From the NCBI GenBank assembly GCA_037379345.1, contig CM074518.1, positions 2,108,001 to 2,172,000 on the forward strand: a stretch of DNA of 64,000 bases, given 5' to 3'. Source of the DNA: Perna viridis (lineage: Eukaryota). The notes beneath the pieces were generated by a model that was given only the letters and a program-made list of their open reading frames with translations, was not told the DNA's origin and did not search any database. Each line of letters starts with the position of its first letter. The first letter of the stretch is position 1. Positions 1,252 to 59,078 of this stretch are shown piece by piece. The position numbers and the translations under genes were made by a program.

Positions 1252-1555
1252 AGAGTAATCAAGGGAACCAAGATTCTAGTGGAAACCAAAAGAATATTAT
1301 CCACAATAAAGCACATAAAATAACCAAAATAATACATACAAAGTAACAAAAGTAAATGAGAAATTCATGTTCACTAAAAAATGGGAGCATGTACCAGGTG
1401 TACCTGTAGGGTAAGCGTCCACTGCTATTCTACAAACACCTGCTGAGATGCTCATAAAAAGTCAAGTCCAAGGTCGACGACAGAGGAAAGGGAAACTATG
1501 ACACAAATCAGTTTTCATGGTACAGATGGATAAAAAATGCGATTCATGGTTGAAA
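1252..1555 (-). mobile_element. Penelope-like (Naiad-type) retroelement, degenerate 3' end
   Basis: Family terminus AGAGTAATCAAGGGAACCAAG and GTAGGGTAAGCGTCC, as in the other copies. Confidence 0.75.
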
Positions 1556-2710: not shown

Positions 2711-4129
2711 GCTTAAGATACTTCAAAGTCCTAAATTATGTTTTTAATGATTAGTCGTATTAAAACAACTGATTTTCTTAATACCATCAATAATTTTTTG
2801 TACTGTTTTGAATATTAATCTTTTATCCACTTTGTCTGGTGGTAATTTTATGCTGCATGTTTATATTACTATATACCGGGCGAGAGGTATAGCGTGCTAT
2901 AAAGCCTGGTTTACCATTTCCATCAGACCTTTGTTTCTAACTTTCTGCTATTTGTTTTCAATTTGTTGTACAGAATTTATTTACTTTCGCCTATAGTTTA
3001 TCAGTTGGCAATTTTTTTATTATGGCCGTCAATGTTATAAACTTTCTAATGTTTTGCTGCTATAATATGAGGCAGGTTTAACCAGTAGGAGGGCGACCTT
3101 TATACTAGAGTGGCCTTTTCTATTACGAACAAAGTTCTAGTAGTCTTTGGACGACTTGTCGGTGGTCCGAAATGTTTCATATATTAAGATACGAAACTAG
3201 CTTACTCTACATTCAGGTATGAGAACACAATTAGTTCGTTTTCGTTGTATATTTATCGAATATAATTCCAACTTTGGTAGTAGGTACCTTCTACATTTTT
3301 TCATATTTTTACTAGAAACTGATTTGCTGATGTTTTGCCTCTAATTGGTAGAAAATAGGTCAAAATTACATGGGATTTTTTTTATTAATCAATTCTGACT
3401 AAAAGTTGTGATTTGGTTCAGTGGAAGAAGGTTAAAATTCAGGACTTAACTCAATTCATTTGTCATGTCTACCCCATCTCCGGGTCATATGTATTAATTA
3501 AGAAAAATGACGGTAAAATTTTACATATCTATAGATAAAATCCTGTTTGTACATATCTTTAGGCCAGAGAAGTTTTATTCAGTTTGCGCCGAAATTTATA
3601 CAAATGTGTATATTGAAATGCGCTTGAAAATTAATTGTGGTCTCGTGCCTTCAGTGTGTTTTTATCATTCGGAACTGTTTCGTCATTAAGCATGCACTAA
3701 ATCAATAAATCCCGGAAAGTTCCACAGGATGAATGTACCTGTCAGATTGAATTCTGGCTCTCAGTGTTGCTAAATGCTATATCTTGCTTTTTTGTTTATT
3801 ACCGTTATGAGTACTTCGTCCCCTATAAAATCATATTTCTTAGAAAAATTTCTAACGGTTTACTATATTTGAATAATATTAATATTATAAATGTACTAAT
3901 GCATTACCTATATGTAGTAATCTGATTATCGTAGAATGATTTACTTCTATAGATCAGCTGATCAAATTTATTTATGCATTGCCTCTATACAATAGATTAT
4001 CTTTTATAAAACTTTATAAAATTTCAACTTCCTTCATATGCATATCCTCGATATAATGTTTATCTCTCATAAAACTTTCTAACAGTCCATTTCATTAGAG
4101 TAAATTCACCGTTAAAACGAACTCTTACT

Positions 4130-4290
4130 TTGCTCCTTGAAACATGTGTACATCATATCGAAATTTGCAATTTATATGATTGGTTGATTTGTATTACTTA
4201 TAACAACTGAGTCGATGCCACTCCTGGAGAACCTAAAATTATCGAGGGTATCCACCAACAATATAGTCAGACTTGTCTAACCTCGAATTT
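4130..4290 (+). mobile_element. Fragment of the HHR-containing repeat
   Basis: CTCCTTGAAACATGTGTACATCATATCGAAATTT followed by GTCGATGCCACT..TAGTCAGACTTGTCT. Confidence 0.6.
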
Positions 4291-6360
4291 AGATAGATAT
4301 AAAATTTAATTAATAAATGTATGTATTGCACATGGTAGAACATTTTTGGTATTTCTATACATTTAATTTTTTTGGAGTAGCTAACCACTAATAAAATATT
4401 AATGATTCACTTTTATAGAAGAACTTTACTGTTAACAAAACTTTGAAATGGTTTACCTTTTTTGTGAAAACATTGCTCCCATGAAAATGTTCTGTAATCA
4501 GTATATCTCATAGTTAATTACTGATTTATTCGAGCTAAGCGAAACTGAAAGCGAAATTCACAAACAAAAAATTGATCAGTTACAAATTTCGATTAGTTTC
4601 AAACTTGCCTTTGGTTATTTGTATGCTGTGTGGAATTTGGTGTTGTAATACCTCAGTAGTATGTATATCATTCCTTAAAGTGGGTTATTTTTTTCAAGGA
4701 AGGTTAATGCATCTAATCAGTTCCTGAAAGGATATACATTGCCAGGTTGACGTTTATGAGAAAGATTCAGACATTTTTTCAAGGAAAGCCAATGAAATAG
4801 CAATCTTAGATATATTTTGATGTTTATTTGAAAACTGGTGGCCCTAGCAAAAATTCATATCAATTATGAACCTCTATATTATACACACGTCTAGCATTTA
4901 ACAGTACTAAGTTCCCCTTATAATCATTACACTTTTATATGACACATGCCTGCTAGCGTAAGCGTACATTTATAACATGATTTTATCAAGTTGTAAGCAT
5001 TGAGAAGTGGGTAGGTACATGACCCATTGACAACTAAAATTATTCAACGTGTTTTATCGAGTCATTGCTTTATTCTAAAGACTCTTCAAATTACTAAAAC
5101 AAATCTAATCTGTAATTAATAGTTACATGTTACTATAATAAGAATTACGCAAAGTCGATGTATTGTAAGCGAAAAAGATGATTTTTGTTCTATGTATCTC
5201 GACTAATCAGCTTCATTTCCGAGGCTTCCTCTAATGTAAGAAAGATATTTAAATGATTATTATCTTTTTTCCTATTTGGAATAAAAATAAACTTGTATGT
5301 GATATGTTCACGCAAGTCTGTTGCATTACATCTTTTTTGATGAATGTATGCACTGTAAGTTCAATATATCAATTTATGTCCAAACCAAAATGGTCTTACT
5401 CAACAATATCCAAACAAGGACTTAATCCATACAAGGACTATGAAAATAATAAAACATACCTTTTAGTTGCCTGTGTATATAAGATGATATAATGTACCGA
5501 GATAAAAATAGCCTATTCTGTGATGTATACATGTAAATATGATTACATGAAAATATAAATTGTGTGATAAAGGGCGTGTTTGCCTTTAGTGAGATTATCA
5601 ATACTTCCTATTTCTATTTTAAGCCTATGAAAAGTTATAAAATATAATTAAAATTTCTTTTTATCTACAAGTTTAACTAAATGTAACCTTTATTGATTTC
5701 AAATTGATTTACTTCTATAAATCTGATGTGATTTAATCCTGAAGCAAGCTGTGCTGGTTAATCCCTAGACGGAGTAATTGCTTTCCGGTAGTTGTGATTA
5801 CGTGTTTCAACTTCCTATTAACTATTACACACAGGACGTAACAAAACATTGATTACATCCAGTAAATGACATCGTATTTTTATGTATTATACATACATAA
5901 TACCTTTCATTGTGACAAGGTTCTTGACAAGTTCACCGACTTTATTACACCTGATTACACCCGGAAAGTGGACTTGAATTGGGCAGATGATAACCAATCA
6001 AAACGACTTCCTCGTATATTTATAGTCTGTTTCATTGTTTTAATGCAAAACAATGTAAATGATGGCATCACATTTAGTCACGTGCCAAACACCTTATCTA
6101 ATCTAGTGTACAAATATGACAGAAATATACATTGCATATTGTGATTCTTATTTTTTTTTGTAGGCCAACTATATTCAATTGGAAACTAGCAAAAATCGTG
6201 TTTATCTTATATTTATCTTTTATAAAAAAATATGAAAAAAATGTAAAACGAAATTATAAAAACAATTAACACTTTATCTATACTTAGCACTAATAATAAC
6301 TCTAAAATGAATCACTACAATAATGCCGCTATAAGCTGGTACATTTTTAGAGATAATGTA

Positions 6361-7062
6361 AGAGTAATCAAGGGAACCAAGGTCATAGCGGTAATCGGAA
6401 GAATGCAATCCAGGGTAAAAGACCAGACATGGAAAAGAGATATACACAACAAAGAACATAAAGTAACTAAAGTCATACATACAAAGTAACAAAAGCAAAT
6501 GAGCAACTCGGACTCCACTAAAAACTGGAAGCATGGATCAGGTGCAACGGTAGGGTAAGCGTCCTCTGCTTTTCTAGAAACACCCGTCGAATTGCTCATA
6601 AAAAGTCAAGTCCTGGGTAGACGAAAGAGGAAAGGAAAACTATGACATATGGATACACCGTAACGATCCACGAGTTCATGATGACGACCATAAAATCTTG
6701 TAGCAGCATAACCAGAAGCCTATTTGTTAGAATTCTAGCGCAATATGAAAAGTCTGCATAGTTTCGGAAAGTTCTGGCATAACGTACGATTTGTGATATG
6801 AACACTCCATACGCAGGTGCTGAAGGGATGTTGCCACAGATGAAAGGAAAGTTGGCAATTCTGAATGAAAAGTCATCACGTTTGTCGTAAAGTTTGGCAA
6901 GTAGTTTTCTTTTACCATCGATTTCTAAGTGTAGGTCAAGATTGAAGCTGACTTCACAGTGTCTGTAGTATCCTTTATCTCAAGTTCTTTGGGTAGATGC
7001 GATGTATCAAATCTCCAAAATTAGGATTGTTTAAAGATAATACGTCATCTATATAGCGGAAA
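6361..7062 (-). mobile_element. Penelope-like (Naiad-type) retroelement, 5'-truncated (RT C-terminus + 3' UTR)
   Basis: FRYIDDVLSLNNP..YDKRDDFSFRI..FISQIVRYAR followed by the conserved 3' UTR. Confidence 0.88.
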
Positions 7063-7730
7063 ATGGAAAACACCATGGGTCAAACAAAGCTATGAACACC
7101 AAAAAGAAACACCAAGAGTAAACCACGCTAGAATCACCATGTGGAAAAAACAGGGTAAACCGAGCTATGAACACTAAAAAGAAAACGCCATGAGCAAACC
7201 AAGCTAACACACCAAAGAAATGACACCTCGGGGCAAACCAAGCTATAAAAACCAAAAAGAAACACCAAAGGCAAACCACGCTAGTTACACAAAGATGATA
7301 AAACCTTGGGCAAACCACGCTAGGAACACCAAGATGATAAAACCTTCGGCAAATCCGTCTATGAACACCAAAGGGAAAACACCTTGAGCAAACCAAATTA
7401 GGAACACCAAAACGAGAACACCTCCGATACATCAAACAATGTAAATAAAAAGCGAATCACTATGGGCGACCGAAGCTAGGAACACAAATTGATAACGCTT
7501 GGGCAAACCGAGCTATGAGAACCAAAAGAAAATTATCATGTGCAATCCAACCTAGGAACACGTTGAGCAAACCAAGGTAGGAACATCAAGATGAGAACAC
7601 TTCGGATACACCAAGCAATGAATATAATAAAGAAAACACCATGGACAACCCAAGGTAGGAACGCCAACCGAGCTAAGCATAGGAAGAGGATAACATCCTT
7701 GGCAAAGTAAGCTAGGAACACCAAAATGAT
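7062..7730. repeat. Degenerate minisatellite, about 38-39 bp (AAACCAAGCTAGGAACACCAA..CACCTTGGGC)
   Basis: Recurring AAACCAAGCTA/GAACACCAA; directly abuts the 5' truncation of a Naiad copy. Confidence 0.85.
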
Positions 7731-8999
7731 AAGAGGCGCAGAAAAAAATTGTGCATCACAAAAAAAGTCTGGAAATTTGAACGAAAGTTCTATTTATGGG
7801 CAAACGATAACGCCATTTGAAAGAAATTCCTATCCAAAGACTTAAGGCAAGACAAACCTATCAAAGGAATTGGCTTACAGTGGATAGAAATGAAAAGTAG
7901 AAACAGGACACTCTCTATCAACTGACCAAAGTAAGAAAACTTCAAGAAAATTCATATCCAAATACATTCGGAATGGCAACTTGAAGATAATCATTTTCTA
8001 ATTACTTAAGTTTCGACTATTTGAGGAAAATCTCAAGGACTAAATGTAAGGAAGCCATTGGAAGTGAATCCTAATATAAGAGGTAAAGGCAGGGCAAATT
8101 AAAGGTAAACCCTTTCTTGTGACACAAAGTAATGCTATTTGAGAAAAATCTCTAAATGTAAGGCGGCCATTTTAAGAAAATTCCTATACCAAGGACCAAA
8201 GTTAAGGCAACATGAAGGAAATAACTGTCCAAGACTAAAAAGTGATAAAATTTGCTTATATTGTAGTCAACATACAGATACCTTTGCAATGATAAAGCAA
8301 ATGACGCATATTCACAAAGTTATATAATGTCAAATTATTCGATGATTAAATCTACTTTTAAGATAAGGATATGAAATTATATTCATGTCGATTTCTCATG
8401 TATTTATGTTGACGTTTTACATATTTTGTAGACTTTTGGATGGGATACATTGGCATAAGAAGGTGTATTGACCAGGCAATACTAATTGACAAGTAAATAT
8501 AACTAAGGCGATATAGCTATATTGTATATCAACATGGTACTTTGCAAGTCAAATTAATTTTATTGAAAGTTTGTTAATACATGTGTTTCTTTCTTTCTTT
8601 CTTTTTTAAGATGTTGCTTTTTCAATCGCTGTATTTGCATTCGTTTGTATTTGTTTTAATTTTCAAAATGTTTAATAACCTTTGACCTTTGTAGATTCCT
8701 TCCATAATTTGTGTCTTCCTCGATTTTCCTTCATATCTTATTTATCTTTACCATAAATACTCTTTAAATAGTTCTTGGCAATTATCATGTTTCATATGAA
8801 AGCAATTTCACAAAATTCAAATGAATAAATAAATAAAATTCACAATGACTGTACAAACTTTCATAAATGTACAATCTATCATGTCAATCTTACCTTCATA
8901 AAGAATAAATATGATAAAGTTATTGTCGGTGTTGATTCTCCTTTATATAGAAACGAATATTGCACGACATACCATCATTGAATTTTAAACTGAATACAA

Positions 9000-9240
9000 A
9001 AATATCAACCATATCAATATTGTAAGTTTGGTAGCCTGTACAGGTGTTTCAAGGAGTAACCTCTCATCAGTAGCCTTAGAACAAAGTACCAAAGAAGTTC
9101 AAGAATCAAAACAACATTTGCATACAAAAAGTACCTAAAACAAAAACATATCGAAATAGGAAGTCACTTCCAGCACCGATAATTTTAACCAGAGTCGAAG
9201 GAGGCACATTATTGTAACCACATGCTTCATACAAGAAATT
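9000..9240 (-). mobile_element. HHR-containing repeat copy
   Basis: HHR at 9034-9075 plus the family segment GGTGCTGGA..CTATTTCGAT near 9150-9180. Confidence 0.6.
9034..9075 (-). ncRNA. Type I hammerhead ribozyme motif (stem I degenerate)
   Basis: Minus strand CTGATGA-GAGG ttact CCTT-GAAA-CACCTGTA-CAGG. Confidence 0.65.
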
Positions 9241-9809
9241 AAGCCTCTTCGATTTATGGTAGTTAATGATATGATAAATTATTTTAAATACGGGATTCCA
9301 AATGTTGTAAGAAATGCTACTATCTTAAGAGAAATGCTGCTAAACAGTAGTTTCTGTCTGTTGAATGCTTATCTAAGGTACCCCTAACCATTAGCGATGG
9401 ACAATTAATATAATTTAGATTTTTTTAATTAAATGTCAAATCTTAATTAATAAATTTAAAGGGAATAAAAAAATTGAGATCGTTGTTTTTCTCCTTAGAT
9501 GTCTGTTTATAATATTATGACAATTGCACGAAATTCAATATTACACAACTTTATATACTGTCAATCTAAAACTATCTTACATGTATATAAAAGTATTAAA
9601 GCTAATATGGAGTTAAGAAATCATTGGAAAATAAATGAAATAAAGTCAGAACAATATTAGAAAAAAGATTAATGCTAAAAACACAGTAACAATGAAAAGC
9701 CTCAAAACCGGTAATGTGCAAACGATAACCTTGAAACACTCTTATACTTGGGGAACAATAGTCTATCTAATATCACTTGCTAGCTAAAGAAGCTAAAGAA
9801 CAGTTACAT

Positions 9810-10750
9810 ACCACCCAGTAAGATAGGGAGCAGTAAGATATCGCACGGTAAGCTAGGGAGCAGTAAGATATCGCACGGTAAGCTATGGAGCAGTAATAAA
9901 TCACCCGGTAAGCTATGGAGCAGTAAGATAACGCACGGTAAGCTAGGGAACAGTATGATATCGCACAGTAAGCTATGGAGCAGTGAGATATCTCCCGTAA
10001 GCTATGGAGCAGTAATAAATCGCTCAGTAATCCAGGGAGCAGTAAGATAACGCACGGTAAGCTAGGGAGCAGTAAGATAACGTACGGTAAGCTAGGGAGC
10101 AGTAAGATATCGCACGGTAAGCTATGGAGCAGTAAGAAATTACATAGTAAGCTAATGAGCAGTAATATATTGCTTGGTAGGTTAAGGAACTGTAATAAAT
10201 TGCGCGGTGAGCTAAAGAGCAGTAAGATATCGCATTGTAAGGTAAGGAATAGTAAGATATCTCTCGATACGCTATGGAGCAGTAAGATACAGCTGGGTAC
10301 CCGGGAAAAATGTAAGATAACGTTTGGAAATCTAGTGAACATAAGATATCTCTCAGTAACCTGAGGAACAGTTAGTCATCACATAGCAAGTGTTGGTAAG
10401 CCGAAGAACAGCAAAGAGCAAAGTTCGCCAGGAAATACTAAGAACTCTCACGGTAAGCTAGGGAATAGTAAGATAAATTGCTTGGTCACCTAGGGATCTG
10501 TTACCCTACACTCGGTCACCTAGGGATCAGTTACCTTTCACTCGGTCACCTAGGGATCAGTTACCTTTCATTCGGTATCCTGGGACACAGTAAGCGATCA
10601 CCCGGTAACCTTGGGAAGAGTACGATATTGCTCGGTAACCTTGGTAACAGTAAGCTTTTCCTCGGTCATAGTTAGCTTTCACTGAGTAACATAGGAAACA
10701 TTAAGATATCAATCAGTAACATTGGAAACAATAAGATTTCACTCGGCACC
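9810..10750. repeat. 30-bp minisatellite (AGCAGTAAGATATCGCACGGTAAGCTAGGG)
   Basis: Clear 30-bp period that decays toward the right. Confidence 0.9.
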
Positions 10751-12989: not shown

Positions 12990-13790
12990 TATAAAATATA
13001 TCAAAAACTATCAAAGCCGTTAAAAACTATTTATCACATTCAAAACCATCAAAACCATAAAATATTAGGTATCACCCTGAAAACTAGCAGAGTTATTAAA
13101 ACTATGTATCACCCTCAAGACTACTAAAACTATTACAAATTATGTTCTCAAACCTTCAAAGACCTAGGTATCGCACTAAAAACTATCAAAGCTATTAAAA
13201 ATTATTTATTTGCCATCAAAACTATCAAAGCTATTCATAACTAAGTATCACTATCAAAACTATAAAAGCTATGTATCGCCATTAAAACTGTCAGTGCTCT
13301 AAAAAATGATGTATCGCCATCAAAATTATCAAAGCTATAAAAACTATTTATTGCCGTCAAACCATAAGCGCTTTCAAAACTATGTAATGCCATCAAAACT
13401 ATCAAAGCTATTTATATCTATGTAATGCCATCAAAATTATCAAAGCTATTTATATCTATGTAATGCCATCAAAATTATCAAAGCTATTTATATCTATGTA
13501 ATGCCATCAAAACCATCAAAGCTATTTATATCTATGTAATGCCATCAAAACTTTCAAAGCTATTCATAACTAAGTATCACTATCAAAACTATAAAAGCTA
13601 TAACAATTATATGTTTCGCAATCAAAAAGTTTAAATTTATTAAAAATTAAAAACTATGTTTCGCAAACAAAACTATCAAAGCTATTAAAAACTTTATATC
13701 ACCATCAAATTACTACCCAAGCTATTGTAAACTATGATGTTTATTTAACAAAGCCACTAAAACTGCCAAAAACACCGTCAATAATATTGA
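12990..13790. repeat. 38-bp minisatellite (CATCAAAACTATCAAAGCTATTTATATCTATGTAATGC)
   Basis: Near-perfect units at 13381-13560. Confidence 0.9.
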
Positions 13791-16879: not shown

Positions 16880-18605
16880 AAACTTTTCTCTAGTTATTCA
16901 TAGTAAAGACTTATCACTAGTCATTAAAAGTGAACTTTTAACGTGTTACCCACAATGAAAATTTCTCACTAGTTAGTCATAGAGAAGAAATCTCACTATC
17001 ATCAACAGTGAATATTTCTAACCAGTTATTCTAGGAGATTTCGCACCAATTATTCACATTGAAAACTCCCCACTTTTTATCCATAGTGCAGATATCTCCC
17101 TAGTTATCCACAATGAAGATTCCCATGTGTTATTATTAGTTAGTTATCTATAGTAAAGACTTATAACAAGTTATCCATAGTAAAGACTTATAACAAGTTA
17201 TCCATAGTACAGACTTCTCACTATTTATCCAGTGTGAAGACTTCTCACAAGTTATTCATAATGAAGACTTCTCACTTGTTATTCATAGCGAAAAGCTCTC
17301 ACTAACTATCCCTTTAATAACTTCTCAGTAGTTATATATATTTAAAGTGAAGATTTCTAACTTGGTATTCATAGTAAAGATTTCTCCGTAGTTATCCATA
17401 GAAAAGATTTCTCACTATTGATTCATAATGAAAATTTCTCACTAGTTACCTTGGTGATTACTATTCACTAGTTACCTTGGTGATTACTTCTCACTAGTTG
17501 TTCATAGTGATGACATCTCCCTTGTTATACACTGTGAAGACATCTCTCTATTTATTATTAATGAAGACTTTTCTCTAGTTATGCATAGTAAAGACTTCTC
17601 ACAAGTTATCCATAGTGATGATTTCTCACTAGTCATCCATAGTAAAGAATCTTCAGTAAGTTATTCAAAGTGAAAATATCTCACTAATTATTCATAGTGA
17701 AGACTTATGAAAGTCATCCATAGTGATGACTTCTCACTTGTTATCCATGGTCAAGACTTCTCACTATGTATGCACATTGAAGACTTCTCACTAGTTTTTC
17801 ATAGAAAGGATTTCTCATTTGTTATCAATAGTCAAAAAACCTCAGTTGGTTATTAAAAGTGAAGATATCTCACTAGTTATTCATATTGAAAATTTATCAC
17901 TAGGGATTCCTAGTGAAGACTTCTCAATAGTTATTTATAGAAAAGATTTCACAATAGTGATTCATCTTGAAGACTTCTGGCTTGTTATCTATAGAGAAAA
18001 AATCTCACTGGTTATTCTTAATGAATACTTCACATTAGTTATCAACTGTAAAAACTTCTCACTAGCTATTTATATTGAAGACTTCTTACTAATTATCCAT
18101 AATGAAGAAGTCTCACTATTATTTCAAACAGAACCTATCTCACTAGTTATTCATAGAGAAGGCTTCTCAATAGTTATACATATTGAGATTTTTCAATATT
18201 TATTCATAGTGAAGACTTCTCACTAGTTATTCGAAATGAAGACTTTTCTTTAGTTATCCGTAGTGCAGATTTCTCACCAGTGATACATAGTGCAGATTTC
18301 TCACCAGTGATACATAGTGCAGATTTCTCACTAGTGATACATAGTGCAGATTTCTCACCAGTGATACATAGTGAAGACTTCTCACTATTTATCCATTGTA
18401 ATGACTTCTCACAAGTTATTCTTAGTGAAGATTGTTCATTAGTAATTCACAATGATGACTTCACACCTGTTATCCACTGTAAGGAATGTTCACTAGTTAT
18501 CCACTGTGAGGACATTTCACTAATTATCCACAGTGAAGACTTTTCACTAGTTTTTCACTGTGCAAACATTTCACTAACTATCCACAGTGAAGACTTTTCA
18601 CTAGT
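16880..18605. repeat. 27-bp minisatellite (CTAGTTATCCATAGTGAAGACTTCTCA)
   Basis: About 1.7-kb array; produces the 9-aa periodic pseudo-ORFs. Confidence 0.92.
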
Positions 18606-18655
18606 TTTGTTGTACACGTGTTTCAGTAAATCTCGGATCAGCAGCATTAGAAACA
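18605..18655 (-). mobile_element. Degenerate HHR-repeat fragment
   Basis: Minus strand AATGCTGCTGAT..GAAACACGTGTACAACA. Confidence 0.45.
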
Positions 18656-18659
18656 AATA

Positions 18660-19358
18660 TAAAGGAAGATCTAAATTTAAAAAAAAAAATAACAATCGTA
18701 TACCGTATACGGTGAAAGACGATTTGATAGATCTGCTGCCTTTCAATTGAATACTTTGCCAAATGATATGCGGGACACTACAGTGAGTGTGGATGCTTTT
18801 AAAAAGAGACTAAAAACCCATCTTTTTAAGCAAACATTTATGTGATAACTTGTATCTGTGGATTTGTGATGTGACTTTATTTTAAATTGACAATATTGAT
18901 TTTATTGTATTTTATGACCACATATATATATATATATATTTTTGGAATGTTTCTAAATATTTATTACCATACTTGAATGTTTTCCATGCATGTTTTATAT
19001 TTCATTTGGCATTTTGGTTTATTTATTTTATAGTCTTTTAATTTTGAATGTATTTTTATGCTCTTTACAAATTCAATTCCAATCAATTATTTTTTTCCCT
19101 CTGTCTCTTATTTTCTTATTTTAGATTTTGTTTAAATAGATTGTCTACACTTTTATCATCTTTTGTCGCTTCATTTCATTTTTGTTTCATCAAAATAGGT
19201 ATCATTGTATTGCTTGATAATCATTCAATTTTATTTTGTGGTATTATTTTTTTTTTATTTTTTTATTTTTATTGCTTTATATATGCATCTTATGTACAGC
19301 GCTTTAAGTAAATGTATTATAGATATAGCGCTTTATAAGGAATGTAATAATAATAATA
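18660..19358 (+). mobile_element. L2-clade LINE 3' end
   Basis: TVYGERRFDRSAA..NTLPNDMR..VDAFKKRLKTHLFKQ C-terminus; 3' AGCGCT...AGCGCT hairpin and (TAA)n tail at 19293-19358. Confidence 0.75.
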
Positions 19359-19529
19359 TACAAGAAGTTCTCAAAACCAAAACTATCAAAATAGAAAATC
19401 AAATCCACCAACAGGAAGTTCAAATCAAATCCACCAACCGGAAGTTCAGTCATGTGCAATAAAAGGACTGAAGCCTTAGTGCTTAGATAGGATATTTTTT
19501 TTAATTTGTAACATTGCAAGCCTTGATAA

Positions 19530-19652
19530 ATACCTACCAGGACCTTTGGTCCACTAGCAGTGGCATCGATCCAGTGGTTAATAAATACAAAAGTACTATT
19601 CATATTAAAATATCGATATTCTGTACACTGATTTCAAGGATTAACTCTCTAA
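19530..19652 (-). mobile_element. Degenerate HHR-repeat fragment
   Basis: Minus strand GTTAATCCTTGAAATCAGTGTACAGAATATCGA..AACCACTGGATCGATGCCACTGCTAGTGGACC. Confidence 0.55.
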
Positions 19653-21951: not shown

Positions 21952-23142
21952 ATGGCTGCTGATAGACCTCGGCGAAATATCCCTGGAATTAACTATAAGA
22001 GTCTTTCAGAATATGGTTTTCCAGATGCTTCCAGTTTGAAGTCGGCTAAAAAAGAGGAGGTAAATTAGGAGAAATCGGAGATAAAAACCTCAAGAAGCAT
22101 TAAGAAAAAGCTAGATCAGACTATCAGCTTAGATCAATCTTTCAATGAAGATGATGGTAGTGATGAAGAGTTGGTACAGTTGAAGTTAGCCTTGAAGGCT
22201 ACAGAGGATGACTTAAAAAAGCAGAAGTTAGAAAAATAAAAACGGAAACTTACAGAAGAGCTCAACAAGAAGCAGTTAGATTTACAGAAAGAGCAAGGTG
22301 AGAATGAGAAATGTGTTAAGTCAAAGAAAACGGCTAATTCGTTTAACACAGATTCTAAATATGTTTCTTTGAATGATTTAAGACAGTTCGAGTGTTTGAA
22401 TGCTTTGGTAGATAAAAAATTGTCTAAATTATGTCTTCTGGATCAGGTTATTGATTCCAGTTTGTCGTCGTCAAGTGATGACTCTCACAAAGGGGGCATT
22501 AAGCAGTAAAAAGAAGTTAGGTAGATTTGAAATTTCTGCTAGTCCGGCTTCAAGCTCTGACAGTGATGAGTTAAGATCTAAGAAAAAGAAGAAGAGAACG
22601 AAATCGGGTATAAAAGCTAAGGCTTCCGATAAAGTCAAAACCTAGTTTCTCTGGCCCCCGTCTGCTCTCCAATATGAATTTGTGAACCAGTCTGTGTCGT
22701 TCAACGACTTGGACGTGAAGCCTTTCACTGCCGGTGAATTAGAAATGATCACCAGTAAGTGCATTTCTGAGAAGGAGCGAAATGGGCGTTTCAATTTGCT
22801 AAAAAAAGATTTGCTGTCTTTTTACGCGGCATGTTTGAGGAAAATTGAGTTGGGTCAGAAGTCTTGGGATGACGATCCGTCTTCTATAGAAGTCCAAATT
22901 CTTACACAGTATGTGCTCCCAAAATCAAAGATGTCTGTTCCTTTTTCTAAACCAGGCGAGAGTGATCAAGTTTGGTTTTGTACTTTATTTAATAGGAATC
23001 GTTGTACGCTAAAAGGGGCCCACAACAACTTGTATTAAAGGTCAGCAAAGATTAGTGCAGCATATCTGTGCAATCTGCTTTACAAAAGATAAAAACAAAT
23101 TGTTTCACCCCGAATGCGATAGTTCTTGTCCGTCACGAGTAA
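21952..23142 (+). mobile_element. Degenerate gag-like ORF1 of a DIRS/Ngaro retroelement
   Basis: MAADRPRRNIPGINYK.., coiled coil, KSGIKAK..WP..GELEMI..KIELG..W, and a C-terminal Cys/His finger [24 protein letters not shown]; several stops and frameshifts. Confidence 0.6.
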
Positions 23143-23444: not shown

Positions 23445-24279
23445 ACACATTTCTTTACTCTTGTGAAGCTGACTTTAAAGCTGATCTGATCCAAAGGAAG
23501 GAACGTCGAGTATCCTTGGATTGTTTCCGCTATATAGATGACGTATTATCGTTAAACAATCCTAGTTTCGGAGATTGTATACTTGACATCTACCCAAAGA
23601 ACTTGAGATAAAAGATACTACAAACACTGTGAAGTCACCCTCGTATCTTGACATACACTTAGAGATCGATGGAAATAACCGAGCTATACGACAAACGCGA
23701 TGACTTTTCATTCCGTATTGTCATTATTAACTTTTCTTTCATCTGTGGCAACATCCCTTCGGCACATGCGTACAGAGTTTTCTTGTCACAACTGATAAGT
23801 TATGCCAGAGCTTGCAGTAACTACGCAAACTTTTTTTTTGTATGGCGCTAGACTTCTTACAATTGGGCTTCTGGAACAGGGTTATGTTACTATAAGATTG
23901 AAGTCATCATTACAGAGGCTTCAAGGTCGTTACCATGAACTCGTGGATCGTTATGGTGTATCCATCTGCACCACGAGAACCGATTTATTCAACGCGTCAT
24001 AGCTATAGTTTACCTTTCCCTTTTCGTCTACCCTGGACTTGATTTTTGATGAGCAACTCAGCGGGCTTTTCTAGAAAAGGAGAGGACGCTTACCCTACCG
24101 GCGCAACCTGATTTATTATCCCAGTCTTTAGTGGAGTCCGAGTTGTTCATTTTTTCTTTGTACGTGTTATACTGATTATTTAAGTTCTTAGTTGTGTGTG
24201 TGTGTGTTTTTCCCTGTTTGTCCCTGAATTGCGTTCTTCCACTAGAATCATAGAATCTTGGTACCCCTTATTACTCTTT
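23445..24279 (+). mobile_element. Naiad-type PLE, 5'-truncated, degenerate
   Basis: EADFKADLI..FRYIDDVLSLNNP..YDKRDDFSFRIV..YHELVDRYGVSIC, then the 3' UTR ending CCCTTATTACTCTTT. Confidence 0.85.
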
Positions 24280-25429: not shown

Positions 25430-26070
25430 TTTTAGTTACTTTATGTTCTTTGTTGTGTTTGTCTGTTTTCCATGTCTGGTCTTTGTCCCTGGATTTATAT
25501 GAACAGGCTGTAGGCTGTGTGCAGTCATTGTATGCTGAAAAGAGTATTTTCGATCATGCTACATGAACTCTTTAACATAGTTATTTTATATTCTTATTTC
25601 AATGATTTTTTCTTTGTAGTAGAAAGGGTGATCAAGAAAACCAAGATTCGTGCTGTTATAAAAAGAATATACTCGAAGGATTCAGACTAGACAAGAAAAA
25701 TAGAAACAAACCACAATGAAATGAAATAATAAAAAAAAAAAGAGAAACAAAAGTTAATGTGAAACCTGGACTCTACTGGGGGCATGGACCAGGTGCATCG
25801 GTAGGGTAAGCGTCCTAAGCTTATCTGGTATCCAAACCGATTTGGTAAAAAAATGTCACGTAAGGAATACACGACAGAGGAAAGGAGGCCTATGACACGG
25901 TAAATAGATCGGATGGATACACCATACTGATCCATGAGTTCTTAGTGACGATCATAAAGAGTTTGTAGTGAAGACTCTTGTAGCAACATACCCCGTTACA
26001 TAAACCCAGCACGGTATATGAAAGAGGAAAGGCTATCTATGACACAGTAAATAGTTCGGATGGATACAAT
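25430..26070. mobile_element. Two inverted Naiad-type 3' fragments (+ at 25430-25496; - at 25625-26070)
   Basis: Match to the family 3' UTR and to DRYGVSI coding sequence. Confidence 0.65.
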
Positions 26071-31334: not shown

Positions 31335-32587
31335 GGATTAAATTATATTTAATGATAAAAATATACCAGATACAGATATGCATAACCATTTAGGTGTAAC
31401 ATTTAGTAACGATGAAAAATGGAATAATCATGTTGAATGTATAATCAAAAATGTATCGAAACATTTAAATGTATTACGGAAACTTAAGTATAGTTTAGGA
31501 AGAAAGAATCTTGAATCACTATATCTTACTTTTATTCGACCGTTATTTGAATATGCATGTGAAGTTTGGGACAATATGGGCGTGGGTTATTGCAATAAAC
31601 TTGAACAATTGCAGCTAGAGGCTGCTCGAATAGTAACTGGACTTCCAATCTTTATTAGAGCACGACTCATTTATAGTGAAATCGGGTGGGAAACTGTAGC
31701 AGAAAGACGCGAAAGAAGAAAACTACAGTTGTTTTATAGTATTCAACATAATAATGCTCCAGAATATTTATACAATTTGATCCCACCAACAATTCGGAGT
31801 ACAGCAGTTTACCCCTTACGTAATGGAAATGACTTGATACATCCTTTTTGTCGACTATCTTTGACACAAGACTCGTTTTTACCATCAACTATACGGTTAT
31901 GGAATAAACTCGATTTGTCTACTCGTAACATTGAATCTATAGGTAAATTTAAAAATGAATTAAAGAGGAGTAAATCAAATCCAGCAAACAGAATTCCTAA
32001 ATATTTCGAGTTTGGAAATCGTAAATTAAACATTATTTTAACACAAATACGATGTCCGGATCTCCTTTTTAAATTGTGATCTCTCGAGAGTTAACATTAT
32101 AACTGATCCATCCTGCCGATGTGGTGCTAGCATTGAAGATTCAAATAATTTTTTCTTTAAATGTCCTCACTATTCTGATATTAGAAACAGACTCTTTATT
32201 AATCTAAATTGGTTACCGGAAAATTGTCGAGTAAATTTAAGTACCTTAACGTGTGGTCACCCGGCTCTTGCCGATGAGCAAAATACAATGATTTTTAGTC
32301 ATGTATATAATTATATAAAAGGATCTAAGAGGTTCCATATTGTATAATCAGTATCATTGATACTGTAAGTATATTTATAACAACCACATACATCATCACA
32401 TCATCACAATATTTGCTAGTTATATCATGTCAATATTATGTTTATATAATTATTGTATTGTTTTTGCATGCTTTCAATATGTATTGTTACACACTGTATA
32501 TGGGAGAAGACTTAATAAGTTCGTCTAACTTGTGTCTAATCCCTTTTGCATAATTACGCAAATAAAATATGTTTAAACTAAACTAAC
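31335..32587 (+). mobile_element. CR1-group LINE, 5'-truncated (RT thumb, C-terminal CCHC, 3' UTR)
   Basis: HLGVTFSND.KWNNHV..FIRPLFEYACEVWD..LQLEAARIVTG; frameshifted CRCGASIED..FFFKCPHY; AATAAA and (AAACT)n tail at 32560-32587. Confidence 0.85.
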
Positions 32588-32622: not shown

Positions 32623-33932
32623 AAAAGAGTAATCAAGGGAACCAAGGTTATAGCGGTAATCAAAAGAATGTAATCCAGGGACAAAGACCAGACATGGAAA
32701 ACAGACATACACAACAAAGAACATAAAGTAACTAAAATCATACTTACAAAGAGGCATGGACCAGGTGCACCGGTAGGGTAAGCATCCTCTGCTTTTCTAG
32801 AAACACCCGCCGAGTTGCTCATAAAAAGTCCGGTGCATATAAACGAGGAAAGGAAAACTATGACCCGTTGAATAGATCAGTTTTCATGGTGTTGATGGAT
32901 ACACCATAACGATCCACGAGTTCATGATGACGACCATAGAACTTCTGTAGTGATGACTTCAATCTTGTAGCAACATAACTCTGTTCCAGAAGTCTATTTG
33001 TTCGAGTTCTAGCGCGATACAAAAAGTCTGCGTAGTCTCGGCAAGCTCTGGCATAACGTATGAGTTGTGATATGAACATTTCATACGCAGGTGCTGAAAG
33101 GATGTTGCCACAGATGAAAGGAAAGTTGACAATTCTGAATGAAAAGTCAACCCCTTTGTCGTAAAGTTTGGTCAATATTTTTCCTTTACCATCGATTTCT
33201 AAGTGTAGGTCAAGATAACAGGCTGACTTCACAGTGTCTGTAGTATCCTTTTTTTTCTCAAGTTCTTTGGGGTAGATGCGATGTATCAAATCCCCGAAAT
33301 TAGGATTGTTTAAAGATAACATGTCATCTATATAGCGGAAACTGATATCAAAGGATCTAGCCAAACGATATTCTTTCTTTCGGATCAGATCCGCTATAAA
33401 GTCAGCATCATAAGAGTGAAGGAATAGGTCAGCAAGTAAAGGAGCACAGTTTGTTCCCATTGGAATGCCGACCTTTGTTGAAAAACACATCCACCACGCT
33501 GGACAAATATGTTGTTGATTAAAAATTCCAGCATTTTGTAAGCATCTTCCTCTGTATATACAAACAATGATGTATAATGTTTTTTTAAGTCGGGATTTTA
33601 ACTGAGTATGGGGAATAGATGTATACAGTGTTGAAAAATCATAGGTTTTGATGCTATTATATTCAGATAATAGTCTTGAACTGATTGTCTCCATAAGATC
33701 TTACGAATTTTTCAGGATCCACATTGAATTAATACCACTACAGGAGTAACAAGTGTTGTTGTAAGACTGTAGACCCTCTTTGACAGTTGTGAGTGTAGAA
33801 GTTAAAAGTTTTGAAAGAGGTTTGGTGGTACATTTTGCAGATCCAACTATGAAACGTTGTTTGTATGGATTCTTGTGGATTTTAGGAATCCAGTACATTG
33901 ACGGTAAATCACAATCATCGCAAAAAATATGC
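32623..33932 (-). mobile_element. Penelope-like (Naiad-type) retroelement RT, 5'-truncated with internal deletions
   Basis: MYWIPKIHKNPYKQRFI, TYDFSTLYTSIPH, GIPMGTNCAPLLADLFL, FRYIDD, YLDL, YDK; the ORF ends (DLFNGS*) with no C-terminal GIY-YIG. Confidence 0.9.
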
Positions 33933-36847: not shown

Positions 36848-37140
36848 TATCAAGGGAACCAAGATTTTAGCGGAAGTCATCCGATTTTAGAATATATCGC
36901 ATTTGTGCCATTTCGGATGTTTAAAAAGAGTAATCAAGGTTATAGCGGTAATCAAAAGAATGCAATCCAGGGACAAAGATCAGACCATGGAAAACAGACA
37001 TACACAACAAAGAACATAAAGTAACTAAAATCATACATACAAAGTAACAAAAGCAAATAAGCAACTCGGACTCCACTAAAAACTGGGAGCATGGACCAGG
37101 TGCATCGGTAGGGTAAGCGTCCTCCGCTTTTCCAGAAACA
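36848..37140 (-). mobile_element. Naiad-type PLE 3' UTR fragment with partial terminal duplication
   Basis: Family 3' UTR at 36925-37140; extra AATCAAGGGAACCAAG at 36848. Confidence 0.8.
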
Positions 37141-38037
37141 GTAAGCCAAAATCAGTGACAGAGAATATTTGACGATTAGCGACTTTGAAGACTTCAGTCT
37201 TAGATTTAAATATAGCACTTTTTTTTTTTACTTTTTACTCTTTGAGAGCGTGAAGTTTACATTAAAATATGAAATGATCGGTTAGCATTGAACTTTCCAT
37301 AATATAGCTGAGAAACGCATAGTGTCCGAGTTGTTTTGATCGAGAAATATTCGGGAAGTTACCCGATTTTAAGTAAAGCACACCGCAGTTTGACGAATTG
37401 ATGCACAACACAACAAAGTTCAAAATTCAAAAGAGAAGTCGGTACATACAAAACATTATAACACAATCTCTGTTGAGCTTTTAAAACCGACATAAGCTTT
37501 TAAAACGGCCTAAATTGTCCTATGTTCGAAAAAGGGTTACTATTGTTTTGTTAGTAACGTTCAATTGTACGATGTGTCAAAAGATGTAAAATGGGAAAGA
37601 ACATGAATGTATATTATCAATCGACCTGAAATCTTCAGCATTTTCAGCTCATTAAAATTTGTTATTTTTCAAAAATTCTGAATCAAGTTCATCTATACAT
37701 CTTCGCCAGGGTTTACGTTGAAAATGAGAAAAATCACTGATTGATTGGGAGTTAAGTTAGGTAGATGATTACAGTCTCCTGGAAAGGAAGTCAAAATCAG
37801 TGGCAGAGAATATTTGATAATTAGCGACTTAGAAGACGTCAGTCTTTGATTAAAGCTGCATTAGCATTGAATTTATTTGTAAATTGTTTTTAGCACAATG
37901 TTTGAATTTACCGCGCATGATTTGAGGTTTTTCACTGGGCCTCCATACGATCCCGCAGTCTCGTTTTGATGAGCCATGCTGCTAGTGCAAAAATTTGCTA
38001 ATGGCGGCACGCTGTTTTTGTCAGCTTTGAAAGTAAA

Positions 38038-38830
38038 ATGACGACTGGAGCCGATACTCCGGGTAAACTCAAAGACCTGATAGAAGGGTTAAGACGAGGA
38101 AAGGGCAGAAGACCCGATTTAGACGACGGTTCAAATACAGCTGACGAATCAGCCGAGGAAAATGATGTCGACGTACAACCCGAAAGCCCCAAATCAGACA
38201 GTGCACACGATGCTGATGAAGAACTGCAGGATCTAGAAAAACAGTTGAGGGATCTCAGACTTGAAAGGAAGAAAGCACATTTACGCCAGGAAATTGAACG
38301 AGAAAAAGACAGTTTGCGGACTTTGCAAGTCTCGGCGATGAATTTTGGAATGCATTCGCTCAAGACAGGACCAACGATGTCACCTTCACAGTTTCCTTCA
38401 AATACAGGTGAGCCTATTAGCTTAGCAGATACTACCAAAGAACAAAAAGTGCTTCAGATTTTGTCGTTCATCTGGCCAGAGCTCGTTGAACAATTTCAAA
38501 CGTTTACTTTGGACGGTGAAATTGAGTTTCATATAGGCAAAAAGAAAGCTTTGGATAAGGTTACAATAGAGGAGTGGGGCTACGCGAACATTAAAATCAC
38601 GCAGGAATTGGTGAAACAAAAGCGGCTAACGGACATTAATGGTTACCTCAACTATACCGCCGATATCTATCGCTTAGCCGCCCGGAATGTATAGTATTCA
38701 GTTTTGCTGTACGACAAAGAATATCGTCAAGAGCTGGCCGATGAGTTATTCGAATGGAGAACATATAGACAAGATTTGCGTGACTTCCAGTTAGTTTCGA
38801 AACGGGATAACCCAACATCTAGAGCATTCG
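38038..38830 (+). pseudogene. Ngaro gag-like ORF1 (in-frame stop at 38692-38694)
   Basis: ORF 38038-38694 continues past the stop as YSVLLYDKEYRQ..W. Confidence 0.7.
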
Positions 38831-38849
38831 TTTATGTTCAAAATTTGGC

Positions 38850-40100
38850 CGAACCAATCGTGAAAATTATGCATTAGCATTTAAATTGCGCGAAAAAGTA
38901 GAAATTCAGTTAAGAAATGAGCTTGCTTTAGGAAATTATGTGATTACTAAAAAGATCCCAACAATTGTGAGCTCACTAGGGGCTGTCCCAAACCCAAATG
39001 GTGAAATACGTTTAATGCATGACGCTAGTCAGTCCGTAGGAATTTCCCTCAATTCTTATAATACAAGTGTTCATATATGGATACGCGACTCTCTTTAAAA
39101 CTTACTGAACCAAATAGTTTTCTTGCAAAAGTTGACCTTAAAAGTGCGTATAGATCCGTTAAATGTCACAAGTTAGATCATGAATACACCGGCTTAAATT
39201 GGACCTTCACAGGTGATGATGTTCCTACTTACATGTATGATTTTTAACTTCCATTTGGCCATTCGCGAATCCCAAAAAATTTTCAAATGTTGAGTGGGTC
39301 AGTTTGTAATATTATGAAATATGTATACAATGTAACATGTATTATCTAGACGATTTTTAAATGATTTCAGAAACTATGTATGATTGTAGTAGGGATTTGC
39401 TTTTATTGGTTCGCATATTGAGACAATTTGGATTTAACATAAACTATTCGAAGATAGAAGGTCCGGCACAGCGAATAACTTTTTTAGGCATAATAATCGA
39501 TACCCGTGATTTGACACTTACCATGCCAGAGCAGAACCAATCTGAATTTTATAGCCTTCTGTTATCCTTTGAAAAACGCAAACGTGCAAGTGTTAAACAA
39601 CTTCAGTCACTTCTGCGGCAAGTTAAACTGGGCTTGTCAAACGGTGAAAGGTGATAGAACGTTTCTGAGACGTTTAATTGACGCTATTTCTAATGTAGAA
39701 AACCGCAGTAACAAAGTGTCATTATCTGCCGATTTTCATGCTGACATTTCTTGGTGGATTAAATTTATGAAGGTTTTCAATGGCGCAGTAAAATTTATGG
39801 ACTCGAACAAAATCACTTCGTTACAAACTGACGCGTCTTCATTAGGAGGAGCTATTACAACGGAGATTTCTTTTATGTTAATTGGTCTATTGACTTGCCA
39901 GTTATTCAAAATGAACATATCAGTATTAAAGAAACTGCTGCTATCATCTTATCTGTACTTCGCTGGGGACATTTATGGACAAATAAAACTGTTATAGTGT
40001 TTACGGACAATATGCCGACCAAATGTTTTTTGAATAAGGGGTCGTCAAAGACAAGTGGCTAATGAGTTTACTGAGAACTTTGTTTTGGTTGTCCGGGGTG
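38850..40100 (+). pseudogene. Ngaro RT-RNase H, disrupted
   Basis: SLGAVPNPNGEIRLMHDAS, AKVDLKSAYR, LPFG, YLDDF, ITFLGIIID, GKLNWA, QTDAS, HISIKE, VFTDN. Confidence 0.85.
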
Positions 40101-43727: not shown

Positions 43728-44820
43728 TTCCCCATACTCAGTTAAAATCCCGACTTAAAAACGTTATACATCGTTGTTTTTTCCAAAAAAGATGGTAAAC
43801 CTGGATACAAATATATAGTTCTTGGTAGAGATTCCTCATACTTTGTAAGAAATAATTCAAAATCATCTTCCAAATATACAGAGGAAGATGTTTACAAAAT
43901 GCTGGAATTTTTAATCAACAACATATTTGTCCAGTGTGGTGGACGTGTTTTTCAACAAAGGTCGGCATTCCAATGGGAACAAATTGTGCTCCTTTACTTG
44001 CTGACCTATTCCTTCACTCTTATGAGGCTGACTTTATAGCTGATCTGATCAGAAAGAAAGAATATCGTTTGGCTAGATCCTTCAATCTCAGTTTCCGCTA
44101 TATAGATGACGTATTATCTTTAAACAATCCTAATTTCGGGGATTCAATACATCGCATCTACCCAAAAGAACTTGAGATAAAGGATACTAAAGACACTGTG
44201 AAGTCAGCCTCTTATCTTGACCTACACTTAGAATCGATGGTAAAGGAAAACTATTGACCAAACTTTACGACAAACGTGATGACTTCCATTCAGAATTGTC
44301 AACTTTCCTTTCATCTGTGGCAACATCCCTTCAGCACCTGCGTATGGAGTGTTCATATCACAACTCATACGTTATGCCAGAGCTTGCCGAAACTACGCAG
44401 ACTTTTTGTATTGCACTAGAACTCTAACAAATAGGCTTCTGGAACAGGGTTATGTTGCTACAAGATTGAAGTTATCACTACAGAAGTTCTATGGTCGTCA
44501 TCATTAACTCGCGGATCGTTATGGTGTATCCATCTGCACCATGAACACTGATTTATTCAACGGGTCATAGTTTTCCTTTCCTCGTTTGTCTACCCCGGAC
44601 TTGACTTTTTATACGCAACTCGGCGGATGTTTCTAGAAAAGCAGAGGACGTTTACCCTACCGGTCCATGCTCCCAGTTTATAGTTGAGTCCGAGTTGCTT
44701 TGTATGATTTTAGTTACTGTATGTTCTTTGTTGTGTATGTCTGTTTTCCATGTCTGGTCTTTGTCCCTGGATTACATTCTTTTGATTACCCTATAACCTT
44801 GGTTCCCTTGATTACTGTTT
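43728..44820 (+). mobile_element. Naiad-type PLE RT, 5'-truncated
   Basis: PHTQLKSRLK..GIPMGTNCAPLLADLFLHSYEADF..FRYIDDVLSLNN..; stop at 44568-44570; 3' UTR to GGTTCCCTTGATTACT. Confidence 0.9.
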
Positions 44821-57545: not shown

Positions 57546-58489
57546 GTTAACGCCAATGTCGAGTTATAACAGCTTTATATGTATTGAATTATGATCGCTT
57601 TAACTGCACTAATAACTTATTGTAAATCACTCTTTTATCAACTTGTATGAAAATCTCCAAGATCTAGGTCTCGGAGGAGGTGAACTTTAACTAATATGAC
57701 TAAATCCGTTTGCCTTTTGAATAGCGGCATCATCAGATTTTACTTTTGTATTTTAGAGATACAAGATTATGTTTTATTAATAAATTGAAATTTAACTTAG
57801 TCGAACGTTGTTTGTCCTATGAGTTGAAGTTTTACAATTGTTTAATGTATTTGTACTCGTGTAGTCCATTTGTAAGTGACTTAGGTTCTGTTATATCATT
57901 TGAAAATGAAATCATATTGCAAACAATTTGACATTGTAATCAGTGTCAAAGATTTGTGAAACAAAAATGCTTAAGCTTGTTTTCTATTTGTATTTAGTGT
58001 AGGGCATTCAGTAAAACAAGAAATCAGTTAAGAAGCCGTCAGCTGGAATTTATTATTATGCAATAATCGTTTATCACATCTAAATATATTTTATAGTACT
58101 TAATAGCCCTTAAAGTAATCTGCGACATTTTGTTATTCCTGTCCGTTCGGTCACAGGGACTTGAGGTCTCGAGTTAGATTCATTAAATGAGCAAAAAGTG
58201 TACTAAAAAGGATGAAAAATAAACAAAAAACAAGAAACGATCAGAAAGTCCATCAAAGAAGTAAATCTACTTTATGCCCCGGAGAAGGCCTTGAAATGTG
58301 TGCAATATTTACACCATGCGATTCAATCAATGTGTTTGACGTTTGTTTTTATACCTATATACATATTTTTGGGGTAAGTAAGGGTATATCGATCATTAGT
58401 GACAGATCTAGAAATTCAAAAAAAGGTGCCCGTTGACTGGCTCTGTTGTTTCAAATTTTACTATATTATCATCATTTTGAGCAAAGGGG

Positions 58490-59078
58490 ATTTCGGAACA
58501 ACTCTTCCTACATGGACCCGCCTTTGACCTGACACATAAGGGAGTTAGGGCCTTCCCTTCCTATTTGGACCCGCCTGTGACCATAACACCTAAGGGAAAT
58601 CGGGACTCCTCTTCCTACTTGGACCCGCCTGTGATCACAACGCATAAGGGAGTTCGGGACTGCTGTTCCTACTTGGACCGCCTGTGACCATGACACATAA
58701 GGGAAATCGGGACTCCTCTTCTACTTGGATCCGCCTGTAACCATGACACCTAAGGTAGTTCGGGCCTCCTCTTCCTACTTTGACCCGCCTGTGACCATGC
58801 CACTTAAGGAACTTCGGGACTCCTGCTCCTACTTTGACCCGCCTGTGACCATGCCACATAAGGGAGTCCGGGACTTCTCTTCCTACTTTGACCCGCCTGT
58901 GACCCTGACACAAGGGAGTTCGGGACTGCTCTTCCTACTTTGACCCGCCTAAGACCATGGCACATAAGGGAGTTCGGGACTTCTGTTCCTACGTGTACTT
59001 GGATCCGCCTGTGACCATGACACATAAAGGAATTCGAGACTGCTGTTCCTACTTTGATCCGCCTGTGACCATGACACA
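58490..59078. repeat. GC-rich minisatellite of about 54 bp, 11 units
   Basis: GACCCGCCTGTGACCATGACACATAAGGGAGTTCGGGACTGCTCTTCCTACTT. Confidence 0.92.

Follow-up and report, generated by a model that had tools for sequence, protein, structure and literature searches.

The window analysed here is a stretch of 64,000 nucleotides from the Perna viridis genome (GenBank assembly GCA_037379345.1, contig CM074518.1, positions 2,108,001 to 2,172,000 of the forward strand). On its minus strand lies a 5'-truncated and frameshifted copy of a Naiad retroelement, in which a remnant of the C-terminal part of the RT is followed by a 3' UTR that carries a structured RNA motif (Table 1). The motif had been proposed in an earlier note made from the letters of this DNA alone. 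It is present at this place, although the letters quoted there are those of the family sequence and the copy itself carries five substitutions. Compared with the near-intact copy L007, its closing stem (P0) has 12 bp rather than the 13 bp that had been described, palindrome B is broken and one long-range pair is lost. With changes at five places the copy counts as a fossil, and the analysis is therefore centred on the family. Folding of a single copy of the motif gives a z of -2.6, which is weak evidence taken alone. The six copies that had been listed in the window were all recovered with a covariance model (at 1357, 6499, 32753 and 37060 on the minus strand and at 24049 and 44611 on the plus strand).

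Table 1. Motif copies, parts of the copy at 6499-6599 and other features of the window (positions are those of the window).
Feature	Position	Strand	Remark
5'-truncated, frameshifted Naiad copy with motif	about 6360..7065	-	RT C-terminal remnant and 3' UTR
Structured RNA motif, decayed copy	6499..6599	-	5 substitutions relative to L007
Closing stem P0, 5' strand	6587..6599	-	abuts invariant CGGGUG
Invariant CGGGUG	6581..6586	-	candidate partners: CACCYG, YACYC, or the purine and C of spacer-CAG
Palindrome A, 8-10 nt	6571..6580	-	self-complementary through centre; predicted intermolecular helix
1-2 nt spacer and invariant CAG	6566..6570	-	first spacer base a purine in 25/25
P2 5' strand, 5 nt, variable	6561..6565	-	covaries with 6534-6538
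Invariant GCUYAC plus YC	6553..6560	-	candidate catalytic or protein-contact core
Palindrome B region, 4-8 nt	6545..6552	-	one change breaks the palindrome here; predicted intermolecular helix
Invariant CACCYG	6539..6544	-	
P2 3' strand	6534..6538	-	one pair lost in this copy
Variable hairpin P3, between P2 and P0	6512..6533	-	
Closing stem P0, 3' strand	6499..6511	-	
Motif copy, damaged closing stem	1357..1455	-	
Motif copy, several core changes	24049..24150	+	
Motif copy, strongly decayed	25755..25860	-	model match near 25786-25815; absent from the earlier note
Motif copy, core intact, 3' part deleted	32753..32822	-	follows RT frame 32858-33700
Motif copy truncated at 5' side	37060..37140	-	
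Motif copy, 9-nt core deletion	44611..44699	+	
Decayed copies of the 383-bp retrozyme	483-1099, 1972-2056, 2597-2710, 4130-4288, 8993-9179, 18608-18671, 19346-19650		also at L564
Open frames resembling the C-terminal RT part of another non-LTR retrotransposon	31342-32347	+	
DIRS-type-like fragments	22134-23038, 37998-39997		gag-like and RT/RNase H-like frames, by eye
Exon-like frames resembling an ETS-family pointed-domain gene	52476-52778, 55107-55913	-	by eye
Degenerate tandem repeat arrays	9790-10654, 13003-13734, 16880-18609, 58481-59079		

Sampling, fold and palindromes of the motif

The family was sampled with a search pattern made up of the invariant bases only, with no pairing imposed. 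At least 122 stretches in metagenome contigs match this pattern; viral contigs gave no match to it, together with one spurious RT match, and prokaryote genomes gave 11 matches, ten of which have 0-3 of the five P2 pairs and were taken as chance. The eleventh, on a 407-bp AT-richer contig of a bacterial assembly (L467), resembles the 3' UTR of a Pinctada Naiad by eye and is likely to be contamination. Among the matches listed there are 132, including nine loci of the P. viridis genome itself; 41 have an RT within 700 nt upstream, many of the 132 loci having only 300 nt of flank for this check. Removal of three duplicates left 129 matches, which fall into 36 clusters represented by one medoid each. 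Thirty clusters, drawn from the metagenomes and the P. viridis genome among the matches listed, have a locus GC content below 0.55, and the six GC-rich clusters were taken as controls for chance. A second data set was an alignment of 23 sequences picked by hand, for which eight decayed single copies and one cut-off contig were dropped and two subfamilies were added.

The invariance of the core is preset by the search pattern, and independent support for it comes from the published Naiad consensi (PMC8557442 File S5). In a reading by eye of the final 420-490 nt of every record, which could miss motifs further from the end, 12 of the 54 consensi contain the motif core: Clytia 1 and 2, three oysters, Tegillarca, Pinctada, two Saccoglossus, two Ptychodera and the toadfish Chatrabus. 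One of the 12, Pfla-1, breaks the YC of the core. Recovery of a further variant by the covariance model, and not by the pattern, gave a sequence that keeps P0, P2 and palindrome A. The RTs of the motif-bearing relatives are down to 30% identical to that of the P. viridis family. Both Clytia consensi (Naiad-1_Chem and Naiad-2_Chem; PMC8557442 File S5) have in common a GC-rich block about 110-190 nt upstream of the motif. There is also a second, older Naiad-like family in the P. viridis genome, which carries the motif with different palindromes and a different P2 (L416, L422, L423 and L428).

The motif is a conserved 3'-UTR RNA structure. Its long-range stem P2 joins the five nucleotides after CAG to the five after CACCYG, with 128 of 150 positions paired in the 30 clusters among the matches listed (null mean of 82, maximum of 98 in 10,000) and 11 of 30 in the six GC-rich chance clusters. 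Two-sided changes are seen at all 13 variable pairs of the alignment of 23 sequences (108 cells versus 29 in shuffles), and none of the slid versions of this alignment comes near the real pairing. P2 and both palindromes covary across families, a check that the earlier note had put forward. The pseudoknot that it drew between a purine loop and a downstream CCCT is not borne out (59% of cells paired versus 60% in shuffles, with no two-sided change); the loop pairs with the five nucleotides after CACCTG, where 95% are paired and all five pairs covary. The closing stem P0 holds across families, with a mean of 8.0 bp compared with 5.7 bp for swapped partners (maximum of 6.5 in 2,000 swaps), and abuts CGGGUG in 22 of 23 sequences. 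The 3' hairpin P3, described before as CTCC..GGAG, is likewise supported (6.7 versus 5.2 bp). The 2-bp GC/GC closure of the purine-loop hairpin is possible and lies outside the reach of covariation; a CGGGTG/CACCTG stem is also possible but invariant, and so beyond the same reach. Both candidate CGGGUG helices are 100% paired and have one-sided changes only, and covariation does not discriminate among the three possible partners of CGGGUG (Table 1). The motif has about 20 invariant bases and is likely to be a pseudoknot.

The 10-nt palindrome reported in the earlier note (palindrome A) recurs across families, and a second one (palindrome B) had been missed. The centre is Watson-Crick paired in 24 of the 30 clusters among the matches listed for palindrome A (null 1.7, maximum 8) and in 22 for palindrome B (null 4.8, maximum 13), with ten and eight different self-complementary central tetramers, respectively. 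As hairpins the palindromes have computed energies of 0 to -2.6 kcal/mol, and palindrome B is too short to fold alone; as self-duplexes they are stable in 23 of 23 (A) and 22 of 23 (B) sequences. A hairpin needs no complementary loop bases, yet the centres stay self-complementary, which implies a dimer. The motif RNA is thus likely, judging from these substitution patterns, to pair with a second copy of itself through both palindromes. The energy gain of the whole-core dimer exceeds that of shuffled palindromes in only 16 of 23 sequences, and the wobble asymmetry (nine G-U versus four A-C) is not significant (p 0.27).

The Naiad host, its downstream stem-loop and its insertion ends

The motif starts about 40 nt past the RT stop codon, and 227 nt separate the beginning of its invariant core from a sharp insertion 3' end, at which a 28-nt word has at least 11,785 copies, counted as exact matches, in the 723-Mb genome (0 for the reversed control). 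The earlier attribution of the element to Naiads is supported. A GIY-YIG domain with an upstream CX2-5CxxC finger is N-terminal to the RT (in L171, frames 3030-3626 precede the RT frames, and the Pfam GIY-YIG score is 23.1 bits compared with a cut-off of 22.6), and a CxC lies between EN and RT (CTC in L171, CSC in L051 and CDC in L085). The DKG/DKA site is DKG in L171, which is one decayed copy from the genome itself, and DKA in the motif-bearing relatives L051 and L085. Partial tandems (pseudo-LTRs) and 5' truncation are present among the P. viridis copies. The finger and GIY-YIG, the CxC and then the RT are the Naiad marks as given in PMC8557442, and the likeness to this clade extends to the partial tandems, the very high copy number and the absence of a canonical hammerhead, which according to the same source is not found in Naiads. 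The difference is that the accessible parts of PMC8557442 mention neither such a 3'-UTR structure nor a shared RT-start stem-loop.

All 101 exact junction copies join the Naiad 3' end to one same sequence, which folds as a stem-loop 231 nt downstream of the motif. By eye, many published Naiad consensi begin with this stem-loop, some of twister type and some of hammerhead type among them. Conserved over about 60 nt directly after the insertion end, it can be seen at L222:2590-2680 (minus) and in the G000 junction copies L475-L544. When the P. viridis genome was searched for variants of the stem-loop, most of the loci recovered belonged to a 383-bp repeat. This repeat carries a minimal type I hammerhead, which has a palindromic stem III and lies 84 nt upstream of the stem-loop; the 28-nt hammerhead word of this retrozyme has 220 exact genome matches. 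Retrozymes of 350-390 bp in mussels are known to undergo self-cleavage and to give rise to circles (PMC7229834). The retrozyme and the Naiad have only the 63-nt stem-loop in common (84%, E 2e-13). Thirty stem-loop loci include two Naiad copies and one that was unaligned, and 17 of the remaining 27 aligned loci end within 12 nt before the stem-loop, as the Naiad copies end. Because the stem-loop is common to both, the comparison suggests that the P. viridis Naiad RT mobilises the mussel-type retrozyme. The same layout is found in another family (L110). In a Poseidon PLE, whose hammerhead is protein-assisted, the RT begins internally, at a stem-loop downstream of that ribozyme (PMC11167929). Given this precedent, the shared stem-loop and the similar ends, RT recognition probably belongs to the downstream stem-loop, separate from the motif, and we regard the stem-loop as a candidate RT binding or start element.

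No pile-up of 5' insertion ends is present in the motif: 65 truncations from an enriched set of 100 copies, 35 of which were set aside as deletions or rearrangements, are spread over 46 positions with at most six at any one. The ends are likewise spread in a finer listing, made by eye with a misregistered filter. A candidate cut site at -4..+3, indicated by six ends among 90 copies, is gone in the enriched set (of 65 ends, none at -4..0 and three at +1..+5), and a mild peak at +28/+29 is not repeated in the finer listing. Pseudo-LTR starts in 65 junction copies range from -983 to +210; 34 of these pseudo-LTRs include the whole motif and run on into the RT frame a second time. Of 90 ordinary copies, 60 read through the whole motif; the template is thus usually either uncut or re-ligated. 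These negatives on insertion ends and read-through weigh little because PMC11167929 reports the same for a working hammerhead: the active PLE hammerhead cuts only with protein, is dispensable for in vitro insertion and has no read ends at its own site.

Known RNA classes and the hammerhead slot

Rfam gave nothing at E up to 10 for window positions 6200-7000, none at the gathering score for 12 motif loci and only four weak, unrelated matches, off the motif, for 19 motif loci. The plain minimal hammerhead of the P. viridis retrozyme was also missed by Rfam, so this negative is weak evidence. Manual fits to HHR, HDV, twister and SECIS fail as well, in agreement with what had been judged by eye before. 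A hammerhead can be placed in no strand order, since CUGANGA and GAAA are not both present from 200 nt upstream to 300 nt downstream in any of 23 loci; the position that follows the invariant CYG varies and takes part in the covariation of P2. SECIS elements have an AUGA/GA non-canonical quartet and an apical AA loop, and act in the recoding of in-frame UGA. The AUGA of the motif is Watson-Crick paired in P0 and is not kept across families, and Rfam returned no SECIS match. Twister ribozymes cleave at a U-A step next to P1, and their P4 loop forms the pseudoknots T1 and T2. The twister loop word (drawn in part from the File S5 blocks) is absent from the 23 loci, and Rfam is also negative for twister. 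HDV ribozymes are nested double pseudoknots of P1, P1.1, P2, P3 and P4 with the catalytic C between P4 and P2 (in part from PMC6561176); in the motif, CACCYG runs straight into the P2 3' strand, and there is no P4, joining strand or conserved P3. In pistol ribozymes the P1 loop forms a 6-bp pseudoknot, G40-C41-G42 is present and P2 is joined to P3 by a G-U step (PMC6154101); here the manual fit fails on both strands and Rfam gave no match. We could place the RNA fold in no known family; the role inferred for it is already known. The literature searched, with subscription journals outside its scope, contains no description of the motif, and the accessible part of a 2026 retrozyme preprint does not mention it.

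The same place in the 3' UTR is occupied by other blocks in related elements. By eye, other Naiad consensi among the 54 of File S5 have about seven twister-like and about 20 hammerhead-like blocks where the motif would stand, and five of the approximately seven Naiads with twister-like blocks also have a palindromic stem in them. Near the motif, both hammerhead core words or the twister loop word are found in 0 of 23 loci, although exclusivity is imperfect, the motif-bearing Naiad-1_Chem being flagged HHR_core in a table of PMC8557442. Rearranged hammerheads (type SGC; PMC10085705) and the Naiad hammerhead-like and twister-like blocks keep class-defining core words, whereas the motif has none. 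The closest functional likeness is to the minimal type I hammerheads found in PLEs and in non-LTR retrozymes (PMC6765202, PMC7229834 and PMC11167929): a pseudo-LTR position upstream of an RT-start stem-loop, a palindromic stem that points to dimer action, and occurrence in autonomous elements as well as in short non-coding repeats. Stem III of PLE hammerheads is palindromic, and these ribozymes are believed to cleave in dimeric form (PMC6765202). The motif differs in having no CUGANGA/GAAA, two palindromes rather than one, a long-range covarying stem and other invariant bases. The shared position supports the view that the motif fills a slot held by hammerheads in related elements; among RNAs identified through this slot logic, several failed to cleave (PMC6765202).

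Two metagenome repeat units, of 796 nt (L094) and 987 nt (L099), contain one motif each and have no Met-started frame longer than 68 aa, no RT match and no hammerhead fit. The 796-nt unit forms a partial tandem, terminates in a (TATC)n tract and has a hairpin immediately past its junction. Each known from one single metagenome contig, the two units look like retrozymes with the motif instead of a hammerhead. The repeat of L099 begins within the invariant CACCUG, which is a single case and a possible assembly effect.

Proposed mechanism and rival explanations

Taking the fold, the palindromes and the slot together, we put at about 0.55 the probability that the motif is a dimer-forming, self-cleaving and possibly protein-assisted ribozyme in the PLE hammerhead slot. 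Two copies, either the pseudo-LTR and 3'-UTR copies of one tandem transcript or copies on two transcripts, would join via both palindromes to form a two-fold symmetric dimer, which would assemble the invariant bases into a cutting site. The cut would release a unit-length RNA that could be circularised like retrozyme RNAs, and the RT would bind the downstream stem-loop and start copying just upstream of it. The larger share of the probability of self-cleavage falls to a new ribozyme class, for which we see somewhat less than an even chance: an obligate symmetric dimer clamped by two palindromes in the Naiads of cnidarians, molluscs, hemichordates and fish, interchangeable with hammerhead and twister modules and having its own retrozyme-like non-coding repeats that would borrow the Naiad RT. 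A small share falls to a known class in rearranged form.

Such a strongly rearranged known ribozyme, in which GCUYA and a pairable AG would correspond to the twister-sister L1 loop with a cut at Y-A, or in which the core would be that of hatchet, is unlikely. GCUYA resembles the cleaved twister-sister strand, its CU could pair with the AG of CAG, five of six bases match the LINE-1 twister-sister-like strand G7-A12, and C or U is tolerated at the -1 base (PMC11620745). The strand GCUCAN with its C-A step has its counterpart in GCUYAC in all aligned families, but this was fixed by the search pattern. Only the AG of the opposite strand GCNAG is kept, the second-strand G-C is not conserved, the two strands are 5 nt apart on one chain, and the flanking loop stems P1 and P2 that twister-sister requires are missing, the flanks pairing elsewhere. 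Hatchet conserves C20-A22, U28-G31, G63-G66 and A73-A75 and crystallises as a dimer (PMC6561176); the motif has GGG following one stem and GCAG following the next one, which recall U28-G31 and G63-G66. These are look-alikes only, as the order and pairing differ, the required flanking stems are absent, nothing corresponds to the CAA link after P1 (C20-A22) or to the AAA block (A73-A75), and the G63-like position holds G in 21 of 25 sequences and another base in four. Having missed the plain retrozyme hammerhead, Rfam would also miss a rearranged form.

The strongest competitor to self-cleavage, to which we give roughly one chance in four, is a non-catalytic RNA dimerisation signal. The palindromes provide the same evidence for a dimer here, and such a signal would hold two RNAs or the ends of a tandem transcript together so that a dimeric RT switches templates and rebuilds the pseudo-LTR. 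Retroviral genomes, which dimerise through palindromic kissing sites, offer a model. The insertion ends without a cut-site signature, the 34 of 65 junction copies that run through the motif into the RT frame again, and the predicted dimer of the PLE protein (PMC11167929) all fit this explanation, which leaves unexplained why about 20 bases are fixed between elements with 30%-identical RTs and why ribozyme blocks replace the motif in sister families and the retrozyme. Recognition or priming by the RT, the other role that the earlier note had offered beside a ribozyme substitute, would make the motif comparable to the telomerase RNA pseudoknot domain. Naiad RTs are telomerase-like (PMC8557442), and the motif, which is likely to be a pseudoknot and has fixed bases, lies 140-230 nt from the insertion end. 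This role is better assigned to the separate stem-loop that directly follows the insertion end in the 101 exact junction copies, and that is common to a motif-less retrozyme ending at the same place and, by eye, to twister-type and hammerhead-type Naiads; for the motif itself it is improbable, and of the two options the ribozyme substitute is favoured on the present comparisons. Least probable of all, and only slightly credible, is a role at the DNA level, with the palindromes as factor sites in the promoter of the pseudo-LTR, or one in mRNA stability or translation. Promoters lie in PLE pseudo-LTRs (PMC6765202) and the wobble strand asymmetry is not significant, but the palindrome sequences change freely yet stay self-complementary, the long-range pairs of P2, P0 and P3 make sense on a single strand only, and non-coding units keep the motif.

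New small self-cleaving ribozyme classes are rare. Recent ones were found where known ribozymes swap places (PMC6765202), a setting that the motif fits in animal genomes. If self-cleavage is true, it would overturn the view that Naiads do without a ribozyme, and the motif offers a short construct for studying the role of ribozymes in Penelope-like elements. Even without cutting, a two-palindrome RNA dimer conserved across four phyla would bear on how pseudo-LTRs and tandem insertions are made.

Two further observations concern the P. viridis copies. At G000:C3:46029218-46081550 (L235-L242), 15 or more full-length Naiad units stand head to tail, repeating at intervals of about 3,409 bp. In at least seven of 100 selected copies (L340, L348, L359, L366, L373, L394 and L395), a recurrent short deletion between short matching ends removes CAG and the P2 5' strand.
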